Assembly: GCA_963663405.2 (NCBI GenBank)
Contig: CAXXSM010000107.1
Location: forward strand, 1 to 19,969
Direction: 5' to 3'
DNA from: a bacterium
GTDB lineage: Bacteria; Hinthialibacterota; Hinthialibacteria; Hinthialibacterales; Hinthialibacteraceae
DNA: 19,969 bases
Shown here one piece after another: positions 1,414 to 18,289 of this stretch. Below the pieces are notes generated by a model. It was not told where the DNA came from. It did not search any database and saw only the letters and a list, made by a program, of their open reading frames with translations. Within the stretch, counting starts at the first letter, position 1; each line of letters begins with the position of its first letter. Both the position numbers and the translations under genes were made by a program.

Positions 1414-2113
1414 ATGAGATCCCGAGTGAATTTATTCTTGAAAGCCGTAATTTATCGAAGACATACATTACGGGTGAAGCGAGTCTCGACGTGCTTATCG
1501 ATCTGAATTTGGAGGTCAAGGGAAAACGAATTCATTGCAGTGACAGGAGAATCCGGTTGCGGTAAATCGACATTGCTGCACTTACTTGGCTGTTTAGACG
1601 ATCCCACCGGCGGTGATGTATTGTTTCGAGGACAATCAATATTCCAGTTTAAGGAACCGGACGCGACCGGCTTCGAAACCGGGGAATTTGGATTTGTTTT
1701 TCAATTCCATCATCTCCTGCCTGAATTTACCGCTTTGGAGAATGTGGTCCTTCCGGGTATGATCGCAGGGAACGTGGGATCGGGGATTATGGGACCGGGG
1801 ACGCACTCTTTTAAGCGAATTGAATCTATCTGGACGATTGGATTTTAAACCCGTAAAACTTTCCGGTGGGGAGCAGCAGCGTGTCGCCGTCGCACGGGCG
1901 TTGATCAATCAGCCCTCCATCCTGTATATGGATGAACCTACCGGGAATCTCGATCCGGCGAGAAGCGATGAATTGATTGATTTAATTAAAAAGAAACAAG
2001 AAGAGAAAAAATTAACCGTCGTGCTGGTGACGCATAATCGCGAAATCGCGGCGCGCGCGGACCGGATTCTTGTACTGCGCGAGGGGGGGACTTCACTCGA
2101 TTTCATCAATTGA
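1410..2113 (+). CDS. lolD: ABC transporter ATP-binding protein, LolD/MacB-ATPase type; several apparent indels
   Basis: ATG 1410 overlaps the upstream stop (ATGA). MNEIPSEFILESRNLSKTY..., then a +1 shift at G-run 1520-1522 into ENEFIAVTGESGCGKST (Walker A). GFVFQFHHLLPEFTALENV is typical of LolD. A further shift at about 1770-1800 leads into LSGGEQQRVAVARAL, YMDEPTGNLD and VLVTHN. Confidence 0.8.
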
Positions 2114-2545: not shown

Positions 2546-3569
2546 TTATTGAATCTCGGATAATTCGACTACACGCTTCTCATCCAATGATCGTTTTGCG
2601 GCTAAACCGATGACTACAGCCACGCGGCCATCGGGGCCCTGCGCGGGTGGAGGCGTTCCATTTCACGATAGCGTCGACAAACGCTTTCATTTCTATGATG
2701 TACGAATCAATATAGCGTTCCATAAAGAAATTGTATGGCAGTGGAGCATGAATCCCTTCCTTGTCGCTGATTGAAGTGCGCGTAGGGGCGTTGTTATCCG
2801 CCGCCACCATGCCTTTGGATCCAAAAACTTCCACCCGCTGATCATAGCCATATACGGCTTGACGGCTGTTGTCGATTGTGCCGATCGCGCCGTTTTTAAA
2901 TCGCAGCGTTACCGCGGCTGTGTCAATATCACCCGCTTCTCCAATCTGTGGATCGACCAACACGCCGCCTTCCGCGTAAACCGAAATTATCTCATCGCCT
3001 GCAAGATAACGGGCCATGTCGAAATCATGGATCATCATATCCAGAAACAAACCCCCGGAAACCTTTACGTATTCTATTGGAGGGGGCGCGGGATCGCGGC
3101 TGCTGATCCGGATGAGATGTGGATCGCCGATCGTTCCCGCTTCCACCTGCCGCCGGACTTCGAAAAAGTTTGGATCGAAGCGGCGGTTGAATCCAATCTG
3201 CAGCTGAACGCCCGCTGTTTCCACCGCCTGCAGAGCGCGGTCAATCCGCGCTAGATCAAAATCGATTGGTTTTTCACAAAAGATATGTTTCCCCGCCGCC
3301 GCCGCGTCTTCGATCAATTGCGCGTGTGTATCGGTTGAGGAACAGATCGCGACCGCGTTGATTTCATCGTTGGTTAAAATCCGATGCGCGTCTTGATGGA
3401 CTTGTGAAACACCAAGGCGGGCGCCGCATTCCTGCGCGGATTGAAGGTTCACATCCGCCAGCGCTGAGAGATGGGTGTTTGGGATTCGATAGGCGAGATG
3501 CTCCGCGTGCAGGCGCCCGATTCGCCCCGTTCCGATAACTCCGAAATTTATAGGTTTTGTTTGAGTCAT
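2546..3569 (-). CDS. iolG: Inositol 2-dehydrogenase (Gfo/Idh/MocA family); apparent +1 indel near the C-terminus
   Basis: GVIGTGRIG Rossmann motif, CEKPID, GFNRRFDP, SGGLFLDMMIHDFD, YGYDQRVEVFGS. Removing one T at 2661-2663 restores a typical C-terminus VNGTPPPAQGPDGRVAVVIGLAAKRSLDEKRVVELSEIQ with the stop at 2546-2548. Located in an iol cluster. Confidence 0.9.
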
Positions 3570-3593: not shown

Positions 3594-4496
3594 TTATAGG
3601 CCCAGTGAGCGTAGGTAATCACGATTGCGCTGGGCGCTATCGATGGGAGTTCCCATGCCGGGCAAGACGTCTTGCTCAACGACGATCCAACCGGTGTAGT
3701 TTTGTAATTTCAATTCTTTCACGATTCCAGGGAAATCGACTTCTCCCTTGCCCAGTTCACAAAATACGCCATTTTTCACCGCTTCGAAATAGTCCCATTC
3801 GTTTTCTCTCGCCTGCGCTGCCACGGTGGGATGACAATCTTTAAAATGAATGTGCCAGATTCGATCGGTTAGTGTCCGCAGCGTTTTTAAGGGATCACCA
3901 CCACCATATGTGTAGTGACCCATGTCGAGACAGAGACCGAGTAAACTTGGATCAGTTAAATTCATGAGCCGGTCGATTTCTTGCGGCGTTTCGATGTATC
4001 CGGCGCAATGGTGGTGGAAGACAGTGCGGACGCCGGTTTCCTCAATAACCGCTTTGGCGATTCGTTCGCTGCCTTTGGCGAAAACATCCCATTGCTCGTC
4101 GCTCAATCCTTGGTTGGATTGGATACGGCCCGCGCATTTCGTCCGAGTTTCTACGGTACCGTTCTCATCCGCGAGCACGATGAAGGGAGTGGGATTCACC
4201 GCAGTCATTAATTTAGCGATCCGGATCGCTGTGGATACGCCTTCTTCGTGGGTATCTGGATTCGCCAGAGCGACAGGGACGAAAGCGCCTGCCATCGCAA
4301 GCCCGCGTTTCTCACATTCCTCGCGCAGTTGATCCGGATTAGTGGGCATGAATCCCCAATCCCCCAGTTCCGTTCCTTCGTAGCCGGTTTGCGCTATTTC
4401 GTCCAAGACTTGCTCGTAACCAGCCGCTTCGCCTTCCAATCCGAATTCCAATACGCCCCACGAACAGGGGGCGTTTGCGATTTTGATTTGACTCAT
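3594..4496 (-). CDS. iolE: Myo-inosose-2 dehydratase (IolE-like, AP-endonuclease-2/xylose-isomerase TIM barrel)
   Basis: NAPCSWG N-terminus, GYEGTELG, FHHHCAGYIET, LCLDMGH, HIHFKD, FCELGKGEVDF and GWIVVEQD metal-binding motifs. Adjacent to iolG and iolD. Confidence 0.8.
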   Translation of the reverse strand: MSQIKIANAPCSWGVLEFGLEGEAAGYEQVLDEIAQTGYEGTELGDWGFMPTNPDQLREECEKRGLAMAGAFVPVALANPDTHEEGVSTAIRIAKLMTAVNPTPFIVLADENGTVETRTKCAGRIQSNQGLSDEQWDVFAKGSERIAKAVIEETGVRTVFHHHCAGYIETPQEIDRLMNLTDPSLLGLCLDMGHYTYGGGDPLKTLRTLTDRIWHIHFKDCHPTVAAQARENEWDYFEAVKNGVFCELGKGEVDFPGIVKELKLQNYTGWIVVEQDVLPGMGTPIDSAQRNRDYLRSLGL

Positions 4497-4792
4497 TATG
4501 TTCCTCGTTACCTCTGTTGTTTCCCGAAGGAATATTTAATACAATCAATAATGTGCTTCCATCTATGAAAAGTTTATCTTATTCTTCTGAGAAAGGAAAA
4601 ACAATCCTGGTTGGTTCGATCGCTCCTTTGGGCAGTGATATACGCCTCAAGTTTAAAAAAGGATTCCATACCAAGCTAAATTCATCTTACCATAAGGATA
4701 TCTCTTGACATAATGAGAGTGGGATGGGAATGTTAAGAAAAAGTTAGGGAGATCAGATAAAGAAATTTTCATATAGTGAAAGGGTGAATGCG

Positions 4793-6665
4793 ATGAATAA
4801 AACACAGCGGCTTACAATGGCGCAAGCCTTGTTAAAATTTTTATGCAATCAGTATGTGGAGCGGGATGGAATCGAGCATCGGTTTTTTGAAGGTGTTTTC
4901 GGGATTTTCGGTCATGGAATGGTGGCTGGTTTGGGGCAAGCGCTGGAGGAATACAAGGATGAGATGCGATATCATCAATGCCGGAACGAGCAGGGGATGG
5001 TTCATACAGCTACGGCGTTTGCGAAAGCGAATAATCGTTTAAAAACATTTGTTTGTACTTCATCTATTGGACCAGGAGCGACCAATATGGTCACAGGCGC
5101 GGCGACGGCGACGATTAATCGTATCCCCGTTCTTTTGTTGCCGGGGGATATTTTCGCGCGCCGCAATGTGGCTCCAGTCTTGCAGCAATTGGAATCGCCG
5201 CAATCGCAGGATATTTCCGTCAATGATTGCTTCAAACCGATCAGCCGTTATTGGGACCGGATCAACCGACCGGAACAGATTCTTACCGCCCTGCCGGAAG
5301 CCATGCGTGTCCTGACCAGCCCCGCCGATACCGGCGCGGTTACGATCGCGATTCCTCAAGATACGCAGACAGAGGCTTTCGATTGTCCGGAAGCCTTTCT
5401 GGAAAAACGTGTCCATCATATTCCCCGGCCACGGCCTGAGGAGGTGATGCTCGATCGCGCTGTTGAATGGATCCAAGCGAGCAAACGCCCATTGATTATC
5501 GCGGGCGGCGGCATTCTGTATTCGGAAGCGATGGAAGAATTGGATGCGTTTTGCAATGCCTTTGGCGTTCCTGTAGGAGAAACGCAGGCGGGGAAAGGAT
5601 CGCTTGTTTGGGATCATCCATACAATTTAGGCGCTATCGGTGTGACGGGAACCAGCGCGGCCAATCAAATCGCTCTGGAAGCGGATCTTATTATCAATAT
5701 CGGCACGCGGCTGAGTGATTTTACTACCGCCTCGAAAACGCAGTTCGCGAATCCTAACGTTCGATTTATCGGTATTAATGTTGCGTCATTCGACGCAGTG
5801 AAACATTCCGCTTTACCCGTGATCTGTGACGCAAAAGTGGGACTCGCCGAGCTGACCGAACGGCTGAAAACAGCGGGGGACGCGGCCGGATGAATCATAT
5901 GTGAGTGAAATCGCAAAACGGATAGGGGAATGGAGAAACGAGGAAGAGCGGCTTTTCTCGCTGGGCTCCACGCCCATCAGCCAAGGCGAAGTGATCGGCG
6001 CTGTGACGAACTTTGCCGGACCGAACGATGTGATGGTCTGCGCCGCTGGTGGATTGCCGGGTGATCTGCATAAACTCTGGCGTACAAAAGCGCCCGGCGG
6101 CTATCATCTTGAATATGGGTATTCCTGCATGGGCTATGAAATCGCTGGTGGATTTGGTGTAAAAATGGCCGATCCATCTCGCGAAGTGTATGTGATGGTA
6201 GGAGACGGTTCTTACTTGATGCTATCCAACGAGATTGTCACTTCGATTCAAGAAGGATATAAACTGACGATCGTCTTTTTAGACAATCATGGATTCAATT
6301 GTATTCGTGGTTTGGCGGGCGCCTGTGGAAGCCACGGATTTGGAAATGAGTTCCGGTTCCGCGACGCTTCCAGCGGATTGTTGAAAGGGAATCAGCTGCC
6401 GATCGATTTCGCCGCGAACGCGGCCAGCCTGGGAGCGAAGGTGATTAAGGCGTCGACGAAACAAGAACTTGAACAAGCGCTTGAGACAGCGAAGGGATTT
6501 GATAAAACCACAATGATCGCTGTCGAAGTCAATCCCGCCGTCTATGTGCCGGGATATGATTCATGGTGGGATGTCGCCGTCGCGGAAGTGTCCGGGATGG
6601 AAAGCGTGCGTAAGGCGAGAACTGAATACGAAGAACAACAGAAGAAGGAACGGTATTTCTTATAG
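4793..6665 (+). CDS. iolD: 3D-(3,5/4)-trihydroxycyclohexane-1,2-dione acylhydrolase (ThDP-dependent); apparent +1 indel at 5875-5879
   Basis: RLTMAQAL, GIFGHG, RNEQGMVH, SSIGPGATNMVT, LPGDIFA, PVLQQLE in ORF 4784-5893. GGLPGDLHKLW, YHLEYGYSCMGYEIAG, VGDGSYLM (ThDP motif) and SWWDVAVAEVS in ORF 5901-6665. Removing one G from the G5 run fuses them (AGTRPDESYVSEI). ATG 4793 preferred over GTG 4784 on RBS spacing. Confidence 0.92.
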
Positions 6666-6696: not shown

Positions 6697-6721
6697 AATC
6701 ATTCAAACTTAGAGGAAGAAA

Positions 6722-7822
6722 ATGAAAAAGCGGAAATATAAGAGCCCGCTGCATGAGATGGCGGTAACGACTCCAACGGATTTATGGAACGATTCCTGTT
6801 CCGTGGAAGAATTGACATACGCCATCAAACATGGCGCGGTCGGCGCAACGACTAATCCCGTGATTGTTGGGAATGTGTTGCAGAAGGAACTGCATTTGTG
6901 GGAGGATCGCATTGGTCAACTCATCAAAAAGAATCCTACGGCTTCGGAAGATGACGTGACTTGGATGTTGATCGAAGAGATGGCCGTTAAAGGGGCGGAA
7001 CTGCTTCAGCCCGTCTTTGAACGGGAAAATAAGAAAAAGGGCCGCATTTCGATCCAAACCAATCCTAAGTATTTTCGCAATGCGGACCTGATGACGGAGC
7101 AGGCGGTTTACTTTAATACTCTCGCTCCGAATATGCAAGTCAAAATTCCCGTCACTCAGGCTGGGCTCACCGCCATTGAAGAAGCCACATGCAAGGGCGT
7201 CTCGATTAACGCGACTGTCAGTTTTACCGTTCCGCAAGCGATCGCTGTCGCTGAAGCCGTGGAACGAGGATTACAGCGCAGGAAAGCCCAAGGCGGTTCT
7301 ATCGTGGAGATGTCGCCGGTTTGTACAATCATGGTAGGGCGGATCGATGATTGGTTGAAAGTCGTGGCGGACCGGGAGGATATCATCACCGAACCTGGGA
7401 ATCTTGATTGGGCGGGAGTCGCCATCATGAAACGGGCGTATCAGATGTACCGCAAACGAGGATATAAAACCCGGCTCCTGGCCGCCGCCTATCGCTGTCA
7501 TATGCACTGGTCCCAATTCATTGGTGGAGATCTTGTGGTCAGTATTCCATACGGATGGCAAGTCCGCTTTAATCAATCGGACATCTCAGTCACTCCCCGC
7601 ATCAACCGGTCTGTGCCCAAGAAGATCGTGGATGAACTCCTGCTGAAGTTCAAAGAGTTCCGCAAGGCGTATGGAGAAGACGCGATGAGCGCCTCGAAGT
7701 TCGATACGTTTGGAGCGACGGTGCGGACACTGCATTCGTTTATCGCTGGGTATCAAGACCTTACCGCATTTATCCGGGACCGGATGATTCCCAATCCGGA
7801 CCGGCTGAAAGGAAAGAAATGA
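6722..7822 (+). CDS. Transaldolase-family (Schiff-base class I aldolase fold) protein with atypical active-site residues
   Basis: LWND, GATTNP, NMQVKIPVT (catalytic Lys), GVSINATVSFTVPQA, MVGRIDDWLK. RBS GAGGAAG upstream. Stop overlaps the iolB start (ATGA). Confidence 0.85.
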   Translation: MKKRKYKSPLHEMAVTTPTDLWNDSCSVEELTYAIKHGAVGATTNPVIVGNVLQKELHLWEDRIGQLIKKNPTASEDDVTWMLIEEMAVKGAELLQPVFERENKKKGRISIQTNPKYFRNADLMTEQAVYFNTLAPNMQVKIPVTQAGLTAIEEATCKGVSINATVSFTVPQAIAVAEAVERGLQRRKAQGGSIVEMSPVCTIMVGRIDDWLKVVADREDIITEPGNLDWAGVAIMKRAYQMYRKRGYKTRLLAAAYRCHMHWSQFIGGDLVVSIPYGWQVRFNQSDISVTPRINRSVPKKIVDELLLKFKEFRKAYGEDAMSASKFDTFGATVRTLHSFIAGYQDLTAFIRDRMIPNPDRLKGKK

Positions 7823-8595
7823 CAGACGATTTAATTCAACCATATTTGAATACACCGTTGCATATTGGCTGGAATCCACTCGTCGAAAACGATCCGGAAG
7901 TGAATATCACTCTAGGAATTTACAGGATCGCCAAAGGGGATTCCCATTCGTTTGTGTCAGAGCGTGATGAAATTGCGCTGATGTTGATGGAAGGGAAGGG
8001 AACTCTTGAATGGGAAGGGAAATCCGAATCATTCCAACGCCATTCGTTGATTGAAGATAATCCTTTGACGGTCCATGTGGCAAAAGAGACTCCGGTGACT
8101 ATCCGGGCGGAATCGGAGTGTGAATTCGCGTTTATCTCCACGGAAAATCCCGATTCTTTTACATCCCAATTGTATACGCCGGACGCGATGTTAGAGATCG
8201 ACCATCGAGGCAAGGGAATATTGGATGACGCCTGTTACCGTATCGTTCGCACGATTTTCGACCGGCGCAACGCGCCGGAACAAGCGCGATTGGTATTGGG
8301 GGAAGTGGTCAATTATCCAGGCCGGTGGAGCAGTTATCCACCCCATCATCATACACAACCTGAACTGTATTATTACCGTTTTATTCCCGATTGGGGATAT
8401 GGACACGGTGAATTGGGAGATCAAGTAGTTAAACTGCGTCACCATGATGTTCTGCGCATTACCGGTGAACGCGATCATGCCCAAGTTTCCGCCCCTGGTT
8501 TTCATATGTATTATCTCTGGACAATACGGCATTTACCCGGTGATCCTTATTTGGGATTTGAATATACACCGCCGTTCGAGAGTTTGCTGGATTGA
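7819..8595 (+). CDS. iolB: 5-deoxy-glucuronate isomerase (IolB/KduI cupin family)
   Basis: LVLGEVVNYPGRWSSYPPHHH..PELYYY is the IolB signature region. Also RIVRTIFD and HAQVSAPGFHMYYLW. Located in the iol operon. Confidence 0.88.
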   Translation: MTDDLIQPYLNTPLHIGWNPLVENDPEVNITLGIYRIAKGDSHSFVSERDEIALMLMEGKGTLEWEGKSESFQRHSLIEDNPLTVHVAKETPVTIRAESECEFAFISTENPDSFTSQLYTPDAMLEIDHRGKGILDDACYRIVRTIFDRRNAPEQARLVLGEVVNYPGRWSSYPPHHHTQPELYYYRFIPDWGYGHGELGDQVVKLRHHDVLRITGERDHAQVSAPGFHMYYLWTIRHLPGDPYLGFEYTPPFESLLD

Positions 8596-8665: not shown

Positions 8666-9652
8666 ATGAAGCGATCGTATGTGAGAACGTATACTCTTTG
8701 TTTTCTCTCCCTGCTTCTTTGTTTTTCCTGCGGTGGAGAGAACGGTAAGGATGAAGCGAAAGGATTTCAAATCGCGGTGATTCCGAAGGGAACATCGAAT
8801 GTGTATTGGCAGACGGTGCACAGCGGCGCTCTCAGCGCCGCGAAGGAATTGGGCGTTCAGGTTCTTTGGTCCGGCCCCAAAGTGGAAACGGATAAAGCGC
8901 AGCAGATCGAGATTGTGGAAGATTTTATTGTACAGGGATTGGATGGTATCGTACTGGCTCCACAGGATGTCAACGCGCTGGTTCCCGTAGTCGACCGGGT
9001 CGCTGACGCCAATATTCCATTGGTTTTGATGGATTCCGGTTTGAATTCAGAGAAATACATCAGCTACGTCGCGACGGATAACTACAAAGGGGGAGCCGAA
9101 GGCGCCAAAGAAATGGGCCGGAGATTGAAGGACGGTGGGAAAGTGGTCATCGTCGCCAACGATCCTGGAGGGGAATCGACCAACGCCCGTGAAAAAGGAT
9201 TCCGTGAGACGATCGAAAAGGATTTTCCTGCGATCGAGATCATTGACATGAAATATCATTATAACGATCGGGGAAAAGCGCGCGCGATCATGGATGATTT
9301 GCTAATACGCCATCCCAACATGGACGGTGTTTTCTGCAGCAACGAATCCAGTACGATGGGAGCTATGTTCGCGCTGCAATCGACTGGCGCGGCGGATCGG
9401 ATAGTGTTTATTGGATTTGATTCCTCCCCGGAATTGGTCGTTGGACTTCGGGAAGGCGTTCTTCAAGCGATCGTCCAACAAGATCCATTTCGCATTGGGT
9501 ATGAAGGTGTGAAGGCAATGGTCCGCCATTTACAGGGAGAGAAAGTGGAACGTTGGCTTGATACCGGTGTCTACGTCGTGACGAAAGAGAACATGGATGA
9601 GCCTCAAATCGCTAGATTGCTGAATCCTGATTTTGGTGAATTAGATCGCTAA
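8666..9652 (+). CDS. Sugar ABC transporter substrate-binding lipoprotein (RbsB/Peripla_BP_4 type), possibly inositol-binding
   Basis: Lipoprotein-like signal (MKRS..LLLCFSC). IAVIPKG, YWQTVHSGA, DGIVLAP, YVATDNYKGG, REKGF, FIGFDSS, QQDPFRIGYEGV. RBS GGAG upstream. Confidence 0.88.
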   Translation: MKRSYVRTYTLCFLSLLLCFSCGGENGKDEAKGFQIAVIPKGTSNVYWQTVHSGALSAAKELGVQVLWSGPKVETDKAQQIEIVEDFIVQGLDGIVLAPQDVNALVPVVDRVADANIPLVLMDSGLNSEKYISYVATDNYKGGAEGAKEMGRRLKDGGKVVIVANDPGGESTNAREKGFRETIEKDFPAIEIIDMKYHYNDRGKARAIMDDLLIRHPNMDGVFCSNESSTMGAMFALQSTGAADRIVFIGFDSSPELVVGLREGVLQAIVQQDPFRIGYEGVKAMVRHLQGEKVERWLDTGVYVVTKENMDEPQIARLLNPDFGELDR

Positions 9653-16418: not shown

Positions 16419-16910
16419 TTACTTTTTTTGAATGTCTTTTAAACATAAAAAATCGACTTTCACATTATTCTTCGCTAACGCTTCTTTCATGAGATACCAT
16501 TTTCGATCGACGGCTTGGAGAATCGGTGGATGTTTTGAGTGGGCTAACGCAACAGCGACGAACTTTTTATCGGATGGATCGAAGGTTTTCAATTTCGGAT
16601 CGGAAGGAAACTCTTCAAAATCTGTTTCGGATGAATTGCGAGGTGTGATTGGGACAAGTTCACATCTCTCACGATTATACATATTCGTATAAATCCATTT
16701 GAGAAATGCATCTCCGAATCCGGGTTGTCCTTCTGAACGTAGGTTTTTTCGATATTCCTTAAAAATTTTCCCTTGGTCGTCGAGTACTATTATTCCAGAC
16801 TTTTTGAGTTCTTCTAAACGTTTAACGCAGTTTTTTACACATTCAGGCGACGCTTGTTCGGATTTTCCATTAGCAACGACGGGGACATTTGTGTCCACAA
16901 CACAGATCAT
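16419..16910 (-). CDS. PIN-domain-like putative nuclease
   Basis: N-terminal CVVDTNV, IFKEYRKNL, FDPSDKKFVAVAL and ILQAVD supply the spaced acidic residues typical of PIN folds. Start overlaps the ATPase stop (ATGA at 16907-16910). Confidence 0.7.
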   Translation of the reverse strand: MICVVDTNVPVVANGKSEQASPECVKNCVKRLEELKKSGIIVLDDQGKIFKEYRKNLRSEGQPGFGDAFLKWIYTNMYNRERCELVPITPRNSSETDFEEFPSDPKLKTFDPSDKKFVAVALAHSKHPPILQAVDRKWYLMKEALAKNNVKVDFLCLKDIQKK

Positions 16911-18289
16911 GAATTTGTCTCTCCTCGTTGGATACGATCCATCTTGGCTTCGACCATTCTTGCCAGTTCTCCGAGATCATCACCAAAAAAATCCTTCGGC
17001 CAGTTGCTGATATCTCCATATTGATTGATTTCTAATTTTTCAATCGCTGAGGCGGCGTTTTCCATGCGGCAGAAATATAAGGCTGTTTTATCGGCGGAAA
17101 TTTTTTCTTCTGCGATTCTGCGTTGAAGGCGCCGCAAGAGATGTTCGCTGTGGCTTTCGAGAATTATTTGTATATTTCTTCTTGTAACGGCTTCGATGAA
17201 TACATCCGCTAAGCAGGCTTGCACGGATGGATGGAGATGAATCTCGGGTTGTTCTAAGATGAGGATCGAGCCTTCGGGGATATAATAACAAAGAACCAAA
17301 ACAGGAAGTATTTGAGAAACTCCAAAACCAACGTCAGTTATTAAAACTTCAGGACTTTTGGCTGTTTTCTTTACTCGCAATTCATAATCCTTCCGATTTT
17401 GGGCGATAGGTTTTAACGTGAAAGAATCGATCATGCCCATTTCTCGAAGCCAATAAGCGATTCTTTGCTCCACAGTCTGTTTGTGTTTTTTATATCCTGG
17501 AGAAAAGGTTTTACCCATACTTCGAGAAGAGAGAAGCGCAGAAATGGAATTTTCTCCCTTACTACCAATGTCATAAGGCTTTTCACCAGCCCATAGATAA
17601 CTTCTTTTGGGATATTCTCGAAGCGGTCCTAAATAGATCATACTCTGAAACAATTTCTCAAATGCGAGTACAAAATCAGAAAAAAAACTAAGATTTTGGT
17701 AATAGCCCGTTAATTCGTCTGGAAAGTCATAGGACTTAAATGGTGAAGGTAAAGACCATGGACGACCAGGATTTCTTTTTGCTATAAAGTTTTCTGAAAT
17801 TAGGTCATATTGATTTTTCTTTTCAAAATTAGATTTACGTTCCATTCCAAATTTAATATTTATATTATTTTGATCACTAAAGGAATAATAAAATTGTTTG
17901 ACAATAGGGCGCTCATCGTAATTTCCAATTGTAGTGTTAAAAGATACATAATTAGACCTTGCTGAATAAGCTGTTTTACTTTCTGGAGAAATAAGTAAAT
18001 ACCTAAACGAAAAATCCCATGATAGGCTAATATCAAGAGACACTCCAGTTTTATGCCCATGAATTAAATCGTAAAAAGTACCCAAATCCACAAGAGATTT
18101 ATCATCACCTGTGTGGAGAACACGGCTGCGGTCGGATGATTCGGTTGTTTGTTTCAGCATCAGGAGTAATTGAATAATGCTTGATTTTCCCGAACTGTTT
18201 GTTCCGAAAAAGCCAGTGAGTGGAGCCAGTTTCAATTTCGTTGTGTCTTTCCAAGATTTGAAATTGATGGCTTGCAATTCGGTAATCAT
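16907..18289 (-). CDS. ABC-superfamily soluble ATPase (AAA_15/AAA_21 type with DUF3696-like C-terminus)
   Basis: NFKSW, Walker A GTNSSGKSS, YLGPLR, signature VGFGVSQILP, Walker B ILILEQPEIHLHP, H-loop LESHSEHLL, C-terminal G.ISNWPKDFFG. No TM segments. RBS AGAGGA. Confidence 0.88.
   Translation of the reverse strand: MITELQAINFKSWKDTTKLKLAPLTGFFGTNSSGKSSIIQLLLMLKQTTESSDRSRVLHTGDDKSLVDLGTFYDLIHGHKTGVSLDISLSWDFSFRYLLISPESKTAYSARSNYVSFNTTIGNYDERPIVKQFYYSFSDQNNINIKFGMERKSNFEKKNQYDLISENFIAKRNPGRPWSLPSPFKSYDFPDELTGYYQNLSFFSDFVLAFEKLFQSMIYLGPLREYPKRSYLWAGEKPYDIGSKGENSISALLSSRSMGKTFSPGYKKHKQTVEQRIAYWLREMGMIDSFTLKPIAQNRKDYELRVKKTAKSPEVLITDVGFGVSQILPVLVLCYYIPEGSILILEQPEIHLHPSVQACLADVFIEAVTRRNIQIILESHSEHLLRRLQRRIAEEKISADKTALYFCRMENAASAIEKLEINQYGDISNWPKDFFGDDLGELARMVEAKMDRIQRGETNS

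Follow-up and report, generated by a model that had tools for sequence, protein, structure and literature searches.

An iol cluster with a transaldolase-like gene

The DNA analysed here, referred to as the window, is a stretch of 19,969 nt of contig CAXXSM010000107.1 (assembly GCA_963663405.2) from an uncultured bacterium of the Hinthialibacteraceae, the genome of which comprises 8.44 Mb in 170 contigs and is 82% complete. The window contains an iol cluster with the following features, in which DKG stands for 5-dehydro-2-deoxy-D-gluconate:

1519..2113, + strand: ABC ATPase in two frames (1519-1746 and 1808-2104); PF00005 fragment, tblastn matches in two frames
2580..3569, - strand: iolG, inositol 2-dehydrogenase; TIGR04380, 445 bits versus a cut-off of 355; GFO_IDH_MocA domains
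3594..4496, - strand: iolE-like inosose dehydratase; TIGR04379, 219 bits, below the cut-off of 290; AP_endonuc_2 barrel
4784..5893, + strand: N-terminal part of iolD; TIGR04377, 606 bits, model positions 1-354
5901..6665, + strand: C-terminal part of iolD, in another frame; TIGR04377, 317 bits, model positions 365-615
6722..7822, + strand: transaldolase-like enzyme, proposed to cleave DKG; PF00923, 130 bits versus a cut-off of 27
7819..8595, + strand: divergent IolB/KduI-family isomerase; PF04962, 154 bits; TIGR04378, 85 bits, below the cut-off of 205
8666..9652, + strand: periplasmic sugar-binding protein of an ABC importer; Peripla_BP_4, 221 bits

As described in a sequence-only reading of this DNA, a transaldolase-family gene is located between iolD and the IolB-family gene, and it is coupled to the latter by an ATGA motif in which its TGA stop codon (7820-7822) overlaps the ATG (7819-7821) of the IolB-family ORF. 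The transaldolase-like ORF encodes a protein of 366 aa and is preceded by a Shine-Dalgarno-like run (GAGGAAG, 6712-6718). The canonical upstream iol set is present: iolG scores above its cut-off, and iolD, although split, is matched by 606 and 317 bits. The genes resembling iolE and iolB score below the equivalog cut-offs, yet are in conserved positions; the former is 53-69% identical to IolE genes of iol clusters in other loci, and the latter is 72% identical to the gene at the same position in locus L009 and 65-69% identical to those in L010 and L011. Thus, the gene content given in the earlier reading (iolG, iolE, iolB and a binding protein) stands, while the split of iolD had been overlooked. 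No permease gene for the ABC importer was found in the window; the iol loci of the relatives L092-L095 contain both a binding protein and a permease. The ABC ATPase at 1519..2113 is possibly the ATPase of this importer, either broken or mis-assembled.

In Bacillus subtilis, myo-inositol catabolism ends canonically with IolC (5-dehydro-2-deoxygluconokinase) and IolJ (a class II DKG-6-phosphate aldolase). Both had been reported as absent from the window, and profile searches for PfkB kinases, class II aldolases and DUF2090 indeed found none there. Across the host genome, which the same reading had named as the next place to search, the best iolC match (TIGR04382) has 95 bits versus a cut-off of 300, with none on the contig of the window, and the sole class II aldolase match is a PF01116 fragment at the end of contig C30. 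The best PfkB gene of the host (contig C36, 95 bits) was considered as a hidden iolC and rejected; it lies between peptidase and FG-GAP genes and has no iol context. DUF2090, as an alternative aldolase, was found in none of the five genomes tested, including the host genome, and the dihydroxyacetone kinase Dak1 was not found in four of the five genomes tested (host genome, G048, G064 and G035). An iolA gene, for a CoA-acylating malonate-semialdehyde dehydrogenase, is present in the host genome (TIGR01722, 487 bits versus 448.5; C125:2884-4332), where it adjoins an MFS transporter gene and is unlinked to the cluster.

The N-terminal iolD ORF ends at a stop codon after a one-base surplus relative to L009, with the frame break placed at 5872/5877. 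Independent contigs break exactly at 5878/5886, none bridges 5879-5885, and read depth is about 2; the read runs X3 and X4 contained only conserved parts of relatives, and a look for RNA data sets containing this DNA found none. Because of this low depth and these contig breaks, and because a PfkB gene elsewhere in the host genome is also split, assembly indels are at least as likely as a real frameshift. Nevertheless, the split iolD and the two-frame ABC ATPase may mean that the pathway is not working in this genome. A decaying, non-functional cluster, whatever the family does elsewhere, would account for both of these features and for the lack of a permease gene in the window. It fits less well with the likelihood of assembly indels and with the state of other genes of the cluster: those for the transaldolase-like, IolB, IolG and IolE proteins have their full length, and all family-invariant residues of the transaldolase-like protein are intact. 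We therefore regard decay as unlikely, but as an explanation to be taken seriously.

The family, its gene neighbourhoods and its co-occurrence with iolC

The profile match to PF00923 and the transaldolase fold of its predicted structure place the protein in the transaldolase/FSA superfamily, and a search of a protein atlas returned transaldolase clusters only. The previously used label "atypical" is fair because the protein scores below the cut-offs of all NCBIfam transaldolase models; the best match is to PRK03343 (119 bits versus 367), while TIGR00876 and TIGR00874 give 84 bits versus 234 and 60 bits versus 396, respectively. Its own family is large, with 60-79% identity across many phyla; no fewer than 546 loci of the scanned species genomes encode a relative, and the family occurs in many bacterial phyla as well as in Asgard and Bathyarchaeia MAGs. 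The closest relative is encoded at locus L009 (79% identity), and an orthologue at locus L091 is from a complete genome. By sequence, the gene appears to belong to a branch of the transaldolase/FSA family that is highly conserved and as yet uncharacterised.

Homologues of the transaldolase-like gene are tied to iol genes, as anticipated. In tblastn searches, 42 of 80 homologue loci of other genomes have iolD at a distance of no more than 10 kb, and the arrangement of the two genes is therefore not due to chance; the commonest named direct neighbours are IolD (22) and IolB (20). An operon of the type LacI-IolB-TAL-IolD-(MMSDH)-IolG-IolE is recurrent in Chloroflexota, Acidobacteriota, Actinomycetota and others. 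An enzyme that could act on the aldehyde product predicted below is often close by: in 21 cases, a direct neighbour encodes either a CoA-acylating malonate/methylmalonate-semialdehyde dehydrogenase (MMSDH; TIGR01722, 545 bits) or an acylating aldehyde dehydrogenase of the SauS/EutE-like type, and an aldehyde-oxidising enzyme is present in 37/80 homologue loci. No kinase recurs in the clusters among these 80 loci. An ORF-based count of contexts gave 43 iol loci and 37 loci without a nearby iol gene, the slight difference from the tblastn count arising because the crude ORF caller sometimes kept an antisense shadow ORF over the transaldolase or IolB gene. At the non-iol loci, the neighbours include IolO-like epimerases, short-chain dehydrogenases, tartronate-semialdehyde-reductase-like enzymes and acylating aldehyde dehydrogenases. 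The iol-linked and non-iol members do not form separate clades but are interspersed, with 16 label changes on a quick tree, and no residues separate the two groups at the 80% level. With 37 of the 80 loci in non-iol contexts and the contexts mixed in the tree, DKG may not be the sole substrate of the family.

The earlier reading had suggested examining whether iol clusters with homologues lack iolC, and the outcome is in favour of the replacement. Among 45 homologue genomes (the 42 with iolD within 10 kb together with L010, L011 and L045), 40 have no iolC above the cut-off. iolC is present in the other five, and in four of these (L009, L020, L056 and L057) it is clustered with the transaldolase-like gene; in L009, the closest relative of the window, the two genes are directly adjacent. 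The four iolC genes score 365-395 bits versus 300 and are not adjoined by a class II aldolase gene, and one of the four genomes with such a hybrid cluster, G026, gave no match to class II aldolases anywhere. A weak PfkB-like ORF is present in three further iol loci.

Two samples that were not selected for the gene, i.e. 35 genomes of the own phylum and 251 genomes of a Chloroflexota class, show the same pattern. In the phylum, iolC is present in 1/11 iolD-bearing genomes with the family and in 4/4 without it, the latter representing one genus; the ten genomes with the family that lack iolC above the cut-off include some that are 95-98% complete. In the Chloroflexota class, the corresponding numbers are 1/12 and 26/32 (Fisher p = 1.6e-5, with kinship ignored). 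Thus, in the iolD-bearing genomes of both samples, the family and iolC hardly ever occur together, with the qualification that the genomes compared here are mostly incomplete MAGs and the counts are not phylogenetically independent. The presence of the family also tracks iolD: it is found in 11 of the 15 iolD-bearing genomes of the phylum but in only 1 of the 20 without iolD, and in 12/44 versus 3/207 genomes of the Chloroflexota class.

Active-site residues and predicted structure

Residues were mapped by aligning the protein with E. coli TalB and FsaA (MAFFT), to the former of which it is ~20% identical. K141, Q112, T165, M204, R207 and R258 are invariant in 120/120 homologues. The catalytic core is kept and includes the Schiff-base lysine K141 (TalB K132/FSA K85), Asn45 (Asn35/Asn28), Asn163, Thr165 (Thr156/Thr109) and both phosphate-site arginines, R207 (TalB R181) and R258 (TalB R228); at the acceptor phosphate site, TalB S226 is replaced by Ala256. 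This conservation would suit a substrate whose tail is anionic and an acceptor that is phosphorylated.

By contrast, the TalB-type catalytic acid-base Glu is absent. Gln112 aligns with TalB E96, and with the corresponding Glu of the transaldolases 3r5e and 3clm, and it corresponds to Gln59 of FSA. In FSA, this Gln is combined with the acid-base Tyr131; here, Met204 is at the position of TalB Phe178, taken as that of FSA Tyr131 based on the F178Y literature, since MAFFT left FsaA gapped in that column. The protein also differs from FSA in its length (366 aa compared with ~220 aa), and the FSA entries match at only 22-25 bits. Because both known acid-base residues are missing, the chemistry of the enzyme is not simply readable from TalB or FSA. 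Judged by their invariance, His260, His262, Asp209, Asp210 and Cys26 are candidates for its acid-base residue.

The AlphaFold2 model (pLDDT 87.1) has a long C-terminal helical part, and its best Foldseek match is 3r5e (E = 1.2e-17, TM 0.79). The long transaldolases 3r5e from Corynebacterium glutamicum and 3clm from Neisseria gonorrhoeae, both pentose-phosphate pathway enzymes, are the nearest solved structures, with 86 and 71 bits by profile and TM values of 0.79 and 0.77 at 19-22% identity. However, these two proteins keep the Glu (SIEVDP and SLEVSP, respectively, compared with SIQTNP here), and they have SFF(V/I)SR where the family has TIMVGR.

Proposed function and alternatives

Based on the observed gene order, family membership, active-site residues and near-exclusivity with iolC, we suggest a model in which the transaldolase-like enzyme would replace both IolC and IolJ; the comparative genomics supports this replacement, while substrate, acceptor and products are predicted from sequence, and we see even prospects for the model in full. 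In this model, IolG, IolE, IolD and the IolB-family isomerase would convert myo-inositol to DKG. Lys141 would then form a Schiff base with the C5 carbonyl of unphosphorylated DKG, the C3-C4 bond would be cleaved with release of malonate semialdehyde, and the bound dihydroxyacetone unit would be transferred to glyceraldehyde 3-phosphate (GAP), yielding fructose 6-phosphate (F6P). The pair of conserved arginines would first bind the DKG carboxylate and then the phosphate of GAP/F6P. Finally, malonate semialdehyde would be converted to acetyl-CoA by a CoA-acylating dehydrogenase encoded elsewhere in the genome.

All of the evidence on context and co-occurrence would fit equally well with an FSA-like DKG aldolase that converts unphosphorylated DKG to malonate semialdehyde and free dihydroxyacetone, the latter being phosphorylated or reduced by another enzyme. 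Gln at the position of TalB Glu96 is the FSA state, and two papers report that residue swaps around the catalytic water can convert transaldolase into aldolase activity (PMC13259622, PMC3962226). However, the acid-base Tyr131 of FSA is replaced by Met204 here, and neither phosphate-site arginine varies, even though a lyase needs no phosphorylated partner. Moreover, the lack of a recurrent kinase in the clusters speaks against this mode, and the absence of Dak1 from four of the five genomes tested is a mild argument for transfer to GAP and against free dihydroxyacetone as a product. In our view, an aldolase of this type is rather unlikely.

The hybrid clusters raise the alternative that the enzyme replaces IolJ only and cleaves DKG 6-phosphate to DHAP and malonate semialdehyde, with the kinase being IolC where present and an unrecognised one elsewhere. 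A true iolC beside the gene in four loci, one of them that of the nearest relative of the window, the lack of a class II aldolase beside these iolC genes (and of any in G026) and the weak PfkB-like ORFs in three further loci are what would be expected in this case. Against it, iolC above the cut-off is missing from 40/45 homologue genomes and from 10/11 in the phylum, including nearly complete ones, and the transaldolases encoded beside iolC have only three weakly distinctive columns in common, none of them at a mapped active-site position. In addition, we know of no member of the transaldolase/FSA family that uses a donor phosphorylated at C1. Altogether, we consider this alternative improbable.

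An ordinary pentose-phosphate transaldolase, merely sited in or recruited into the iol operon, is very improbable: the protein shares its fold and Schiff-base lysine with transaldolases, and it is the only PF00923 match in the host genome, where it may thus have a housekeeping role, and in 8/12 carriers of the family in the phylum, but its presence tracks iolD, the catalytic Glu is replaced in 120/120 homologues, the score is below every NCBIfam transaldolase cut-off, and 14/35 genomes of the phylum have no PF00923 gene at all, i.e. no transaldolase-family gene is needed for housekeeping there.

Compared with IolC and IolJ, the proposed DKG:GAP transaldolase would have the same place in the pathway after IolB, act on the same C-C bond and release the same product, malonate semialdehyde, downstream of the same iolG, iolE, iolD and iolB genes. 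It would differ in that one Schiff-base (class I type) enzyme from a different fold family would stand in for two, in a cluster without kinase or class II aldolase, and in that F6P (or dihydroxyacetone), not DHAP as in the IolJ route, would carry away the three-carbon unit. The sulfo-TAL pathway similarly does without a kinase: an isomerase forms a ketose that carries an anionic tail, the dihydroxyacetone unit of this ketose is transferred to GAP by a transaldolase, and the acidic aldehyde left over is passed to a dehydrogenase. The analogy to sulfofructose transaldolase (SftT/SqvA; BmSF-TAL, PDB 8bc2/8bc3), drawn already in the sequence-only reading, would hold for the pathway logic but not for a close relationship, because BmSF-TAL belongs to a different branch of short proteins (~220 aa) and matches with 43.5 bits over ~70 residues and a TM of 0.44 on the query. 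The likeness is one of function and does not indicate common descent within the family. A further non-orthologous replacement of IolJ in iol clusters, also recognised by context and co-occurrence, is the IolC-DUF2090 fusion, which is proposed from fitness data to be an alternative DKG-6-phosphate aldolase (Price et al. 2022, PMC9007349). DUF2090 is LacD-like, fused to the kinase and acts on a phosphorylated substrate, whereas here DUF2090 is absent (0/5) and the kinase is usually missing too.

A literature search covering full texts found no paper that places a transaldolase in inositol catabolism, in line with the earlier statement that the route was not known to have been described. More tentatively, we speculate that the family is an undescribed branch of the superfamily that relies on a separate catalytic apparatus, with Gln and Met at the positions of the known acid-base residues, and that it may act broadly on 5-keto-(deoxy)hexonates as a transaldolase with GAP as the acceptor and provide a kinase-free end to the breakdown of inositol and other acid sugars; in some anaerobes, this breakdown might be coupled via malonyl-CoA and an mmdA-like decarboxylase to energy conservation.

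The breakdown of myo-inositol is textbook biochemistry, and tools for genome annotation and for finding pathway gaps look for iolC together with iolJ or DUF2090 when scoring it. If the transaldolase-like enzyme alone closes the pathway, inositol use would be under-called in many uncultured lineages, with relatives at at least 546 loci and in 12/44 iolD-bearing genomes of the Chloroflexota class sample giving an idea of the scale. The enzyme would also represent the second natural case, after sulfo-TAL, in which a transaldolase replaces a kinase and aldolase pair, and its Schiff-base aldol chemistry would proceed in the absence of both acid-base residues known from the superfamily, a feature that would attract enzymologists as well as those using unphosphorylated donors in biocatalysis.

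The window cluster and its genome

The transaldolase-like gene lies between iolD and an IolB/KduI-family gene; its stop codon and the IolB start overlap in an ATGA, and a GAGGAAG run stands 5' of its own start. The plus-strand genes for IolD, the transaldolase-like protein, IolB and a sugar-binding protein diverge from the minus-strand iolG and iolE-like genes. The sequence-only reading had the coordinates, the gene order and the complement of iolG, iolE, iolD, iolB and a binding protein right, and left unremarked that iolD and an ABC ATPase upstream of it are each in two frames.

1519-2113 (open reading frames to 2104), ABC ATPase in two frames, upstream of the iol genes
2580-3569, minus strand, iolG
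3594-4496, minus strand, iolE-like gene
4784-5893 and 5901-6665, plus strand, iolD in two frames (model positions 1-354 and 365-615)
6722-7822, plus strand, transaldolase-family gene
7819-8595, plus strand, IolB/KduI-family gene
8666-9652, plus strand, sugar-binding protein
16419-16910, minus strand, HEC-03A (128 bits)
16907-18289, minus strand, HEC-03B, an AAA_15/DUF3696 ATPase (493 bits)

The last two adjacent genes (16419-18289) form a candidate HEC-03 defence pair (PADLOC). A Wzy_C/TPR protein at 1-1225 is possibly also in two frames, with overlapping open reading frames at 1-768 and 518-1225.

The assembly containing the window contig comprises 8.44 Mb in 170 contigs and is 82% complete. 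The iolD frame break comes from a single extra base compared with L009, the locus of the closest relative; public runs with the window DNA have a depth of about 2, and their contigs end at 5878 and restart at 5886. A PfkB gene on another contig (G000:C74:23822-24713) is also split. Such two-frame genes (ABC ATPase, iolD, PfkB and possibly Wzy_C/TPR) at this depth suggest assembly indel errors rather than gene decay. For iolD and the ABC ATPase, such indels are at least as likely as real decay.

As had been claimed, IolC and IolJ are missing from the window, where no open reading frame matches PfkB, class II aldolase or DUF2090. The genome-wide search agreed: in this 82%-complete genome no iolC was found above cut-off (top model match 95 bits, cut-off 300), class II aldolase is represented by one fragment at a contig end, and DUF2090 was not found. 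The 95-bit PfkB match is flanked by peptidase and FG-GAP genes and was rejected as a hidden iolC. The transaldolase-like gene is the sole PF00923 match in the genome, and a CoA-acylating malonate-semialdehyde dehydrogenase above cut-off is encoded on contig C125, unlinked to the iol cluster.

The protein family and its neighbourhoods

The best 120 of at least 8000 candidate homologues from 5.8 billion proteins have 335-416 residues and are 64-100% identical to the window protein. Sources that name them use "transaldolase family protein", and their MAG labels include Omnitrophota, Spirochaetota, Anaerolineae, Deltaproteobacteria, Mahella and Promethearchaeota. Scanning a single genome of each species with a sequence pattern gave at least 572 matching stretches, at least 546 of which encode a relative; the best 80 loci of these served for context analysis. 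In a quick tree, the window protein groups with those of loci L009, L010 and L011 (99% SH-aLRT). Contigs assigned by label to MAGs of Asgard (Sigynarchaeum, Promethearchaeota) and of Bathyarchaeia carry three homologues (L046, L062 and L069; 62-63% identity), and iol genes lie close to two of the three. On the tree, hardly anything separates the Bathyarchaeia copy from one in a Hydrogenedentota MAG, which may reflect transfer or mis-binning. The L066 contig carries two identical copies in mirror-image gene order, which suggests a palindromic artefact of assembly.

A tblastn search with the window's own proteins, limited to 10 kb around the homologue, detected iolD in 42 of the best 80 loci, IolE in 33, IolG in 31 and window-type IolB in 25. 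Clustering of open reading frames across the same loci gave IolD in 34, canonical IolB (TIGR04378, 335 bits) in 31, IolE in 27, IolG in 26, LacI regulators in 24, CoA-acylating (methyl)malonate-semialdehyde dehydrogenase (MMSDH; TIGR01722, 545 bits) in 19, short-chain dehydrogenases in 14 and a SauS/EutE-like acylating aldehyde dehydrogenase in 12. The commonest direct neighbours are IolD (22), IolB (20), MMSDH (11) and the acylating dehydrogenase (10), and the order LacI-IolB-transaldolase-IolD-(MMSDH)-IolG-IolE-IolG recurs. In six Anaerolineaceae loci, L059, L067 and L070 among them, a tungsten-type aldehyde:ferredoxin oxidoreductase (AFOR_N/AFOR_C) lies 3' of the iol operon; it may offer the aldehyde product another outlet.

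Distribution against iolC

If the transaldolase-like enzyme stood in for IolC and IolJ, as the sequence-only reading proposed, its gene and iolC should tend to exclude each other. This is mostly so, and not strictly. Among the genomes of 45 of the best 80 loci (all 42 that have iolD, together with L010, L011 and L045), iolC is below cut-off or missing in 40 and above it in five, four times within the cluster.

In the window's own phylum, all 35 sampled genomes were searched; the transaldolase-like gene occurs in 12, iolD in 15 (14 above cut-off, and the split gene of the window genome) and iolC in five. This sample and one from a Chloroflexota class, both chosen without regard to the gene, divide as follows.

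iolC among iolD-bearing genomes
Own phylum, with the transaldolase-like gene (n = 11): iolC above cut-off in 1, the L009 genome
Own phylum, without it (n = 4, all one genus): iolC above cut-off in 4
Chloroflexota class, with it (n = 12): iolC in 1, the three genes on three different contigs
Chloroflexota class, without it (n = 32): iolC in 26

The four phylum genomes without the transaldolase-like gene have the order IolB-IolC-IolD-IolE-IolG, while relatives that are 95-98% complete have IolE-IolG-IolD-transaldolase-IolB or IolD-transaldolase-IolB, with no space for a kinase; just one of the 20 phylum genomes without iolD has the gene. From these counts and gene orders, the window arrangement is therefore the norm of the lineage and L009 the exception. 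The Chloroflexota sample comprises 251 genomes spread evenly over the class to which one carrier belongs, and its Fisher's exact p of 1.6e-5 overstates the evidence because the genomes are related, not independent, and the MAGs are incomplete. Here the gene tracks iolD (12 of 44 iolD-bearing genomes versus 3 of 207 without iolD) and, in eight of these 12 carriers, lies at most 2.4 kb from it.

The hybrids count against a strictly kinase-free reading. An iolC-type kinase is present in only four of the 80 loci, L009 (79% identity; order iolD-iolC-transaldolase-iolB), L020, L056 and L057, each time within the cluster. None of the four genomes has a class II aldolase next to iolC, and one lacks any class II aldolase match; the fifth iolC genome, G024, has a separate pair of iolC and class II aldolase on another contig. 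The hybrid clusters may represent redundancy or a transitional state, a general aldolase may serve them, as PMC13311982 proposes for Dysosmobacter, or the transaldolase-like enzyme may also accept the phosphorylated substrate. Sequence comparison revealed no distinctive active-site residues in the hybrid-locus transaldolases.

Active site, proposed reaction and wider family

We aligned the family with the TalB and FsaA sequences of the annotated E. coli K-12 record, with which the residue numbers in the literature agree. TalB N35, E96, K132, N154, T156, F178, R181, S226 and R228 align with family N45, Q112, K141, N163, T165, M204, R207, A256 and R258, respectively. The alignment at TalB D17 is ambiguous, and its likely counterpart is the invariant D24 of a WNDSCS motif. 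Q112, K141, M204, R207 and R258 are invariant in all of the best 120 homologues. In a profile alignment with 3r5e, the long transaldolase of Corynebacterium glutamicum, SIEVDP and SFFVSR are replaced by SIQTNP and TIMVGR. FSA holds its catalytic water with Gln59, Thr109 and Tyr131. According to PMC3962226, the F178Y exchange turns TalB into a dihydroxyacetone aldolase, and TalB R181 binds the acceptor phosphate. The family thus has the Gln of the FSA type, lacks both the acid-base Tyr of FSA and the acid-base Glu of transaldolases, and retains the two anion-site arginines. The predicted model (pLDDT 87.1) has a long-transaldolase fold (TM 0.79 to 3r5e at 22% identity). BmSF-TAL, a sulfofructose transaldolase of the short type, is related only distantly (43.5 bits, TM 0.44).

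5-Dehydro-2-deoxy-D-gluconate (DKG) has a CH2OH-CO-CHOH-CHOH- head followed by CH2-COO-, and IolJ, a fructose-bisphosphate aldolase homologue, cleaves its 6-phosphate to DHAP and malonate semialdehyde. Because IolJ belongs to that family, we infer that the two carbinol carbons of DKG have the configuration accepted by transaldolase and FSA. In the proposed scheme, the enzyme would form a Schiff base at C5 of DKG, retro-aldol cleavage would release malonate semialdehyde, and the bound dihydroxyacetone unit would pass to glyceraldehyde 3-phosphate, giving fructose 6-phosphate, or to water. Three features support this putative assignment of substrate, acceptor and products: the gene is tightly paired with that of the isomerase IolB, a malonate-semialdehyde or acylating aldehyde dehydrogenase is often encoded next to it, and the enzyme retains the anion site. 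Dak1 is present in one of five carriers tested (G013) and absent from the window genome, G048, G064 and G035, which mildly favors transfer to glyceraldehyde 3-phosphate.

Known pathway endings, as given in PMC9007349, are IolC plus IolJ and an IolC-DUF2090 fusion. Our full-text search of the main texts of an available set of papers found no paper on a transaldolase in inositol catabolism. Gene linkage and anticorrelation with iolC support, at the level of comparative genomics, the proposed replacement of IolC and IolJ, that is, a kinase-free ending via the transaldolase-like enzyme.

No iol gene is nearby in 37 of the best 80 loci, nine of them on contigs under 8 kb. Neighbors here are GntR regulators, one or two short-chain dehydrogenases, an IolO-like epimerase (242 bits, cut-off 300), a 3-hydroxyisobutyrate/tartronate-semialdehyde reductase-like enzyme, and MMSDH or an acylating aldehyde dehydrogenase. 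For instance, an IolO-like homologue of 5-keto-L-gluconate epimerase lies just upstream of the transaldolase-like gene in L013, L018 and L076, and the reductase-like gene follows the transaldolase-like gene in L018 and L061. These epimerase and reductase neighbors hint at kinase-free cleavage of other 5-keto-hexonates. In L076, L050 and L025, an mmdA-like carboxyltransferase (TIGR01117, 712 bits, below cut-off) accompanies the acylating aldehyde dehydrogenase and the transaldolase-like gene, and malonate semialdehyde could possibly be converted there to malonyl-CoA and, by decarboxylation, to acetyl-CoA. Shared by the loci without iol genes is a predicted sequence of steps: an isomerase or dehydrogenase would make a keto-acid sugar, the transaldolase-like enzyme would act next, and an enzyme for acidic aldehydes would come last. 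Such a scheme would fit a wider substrate range of the family.
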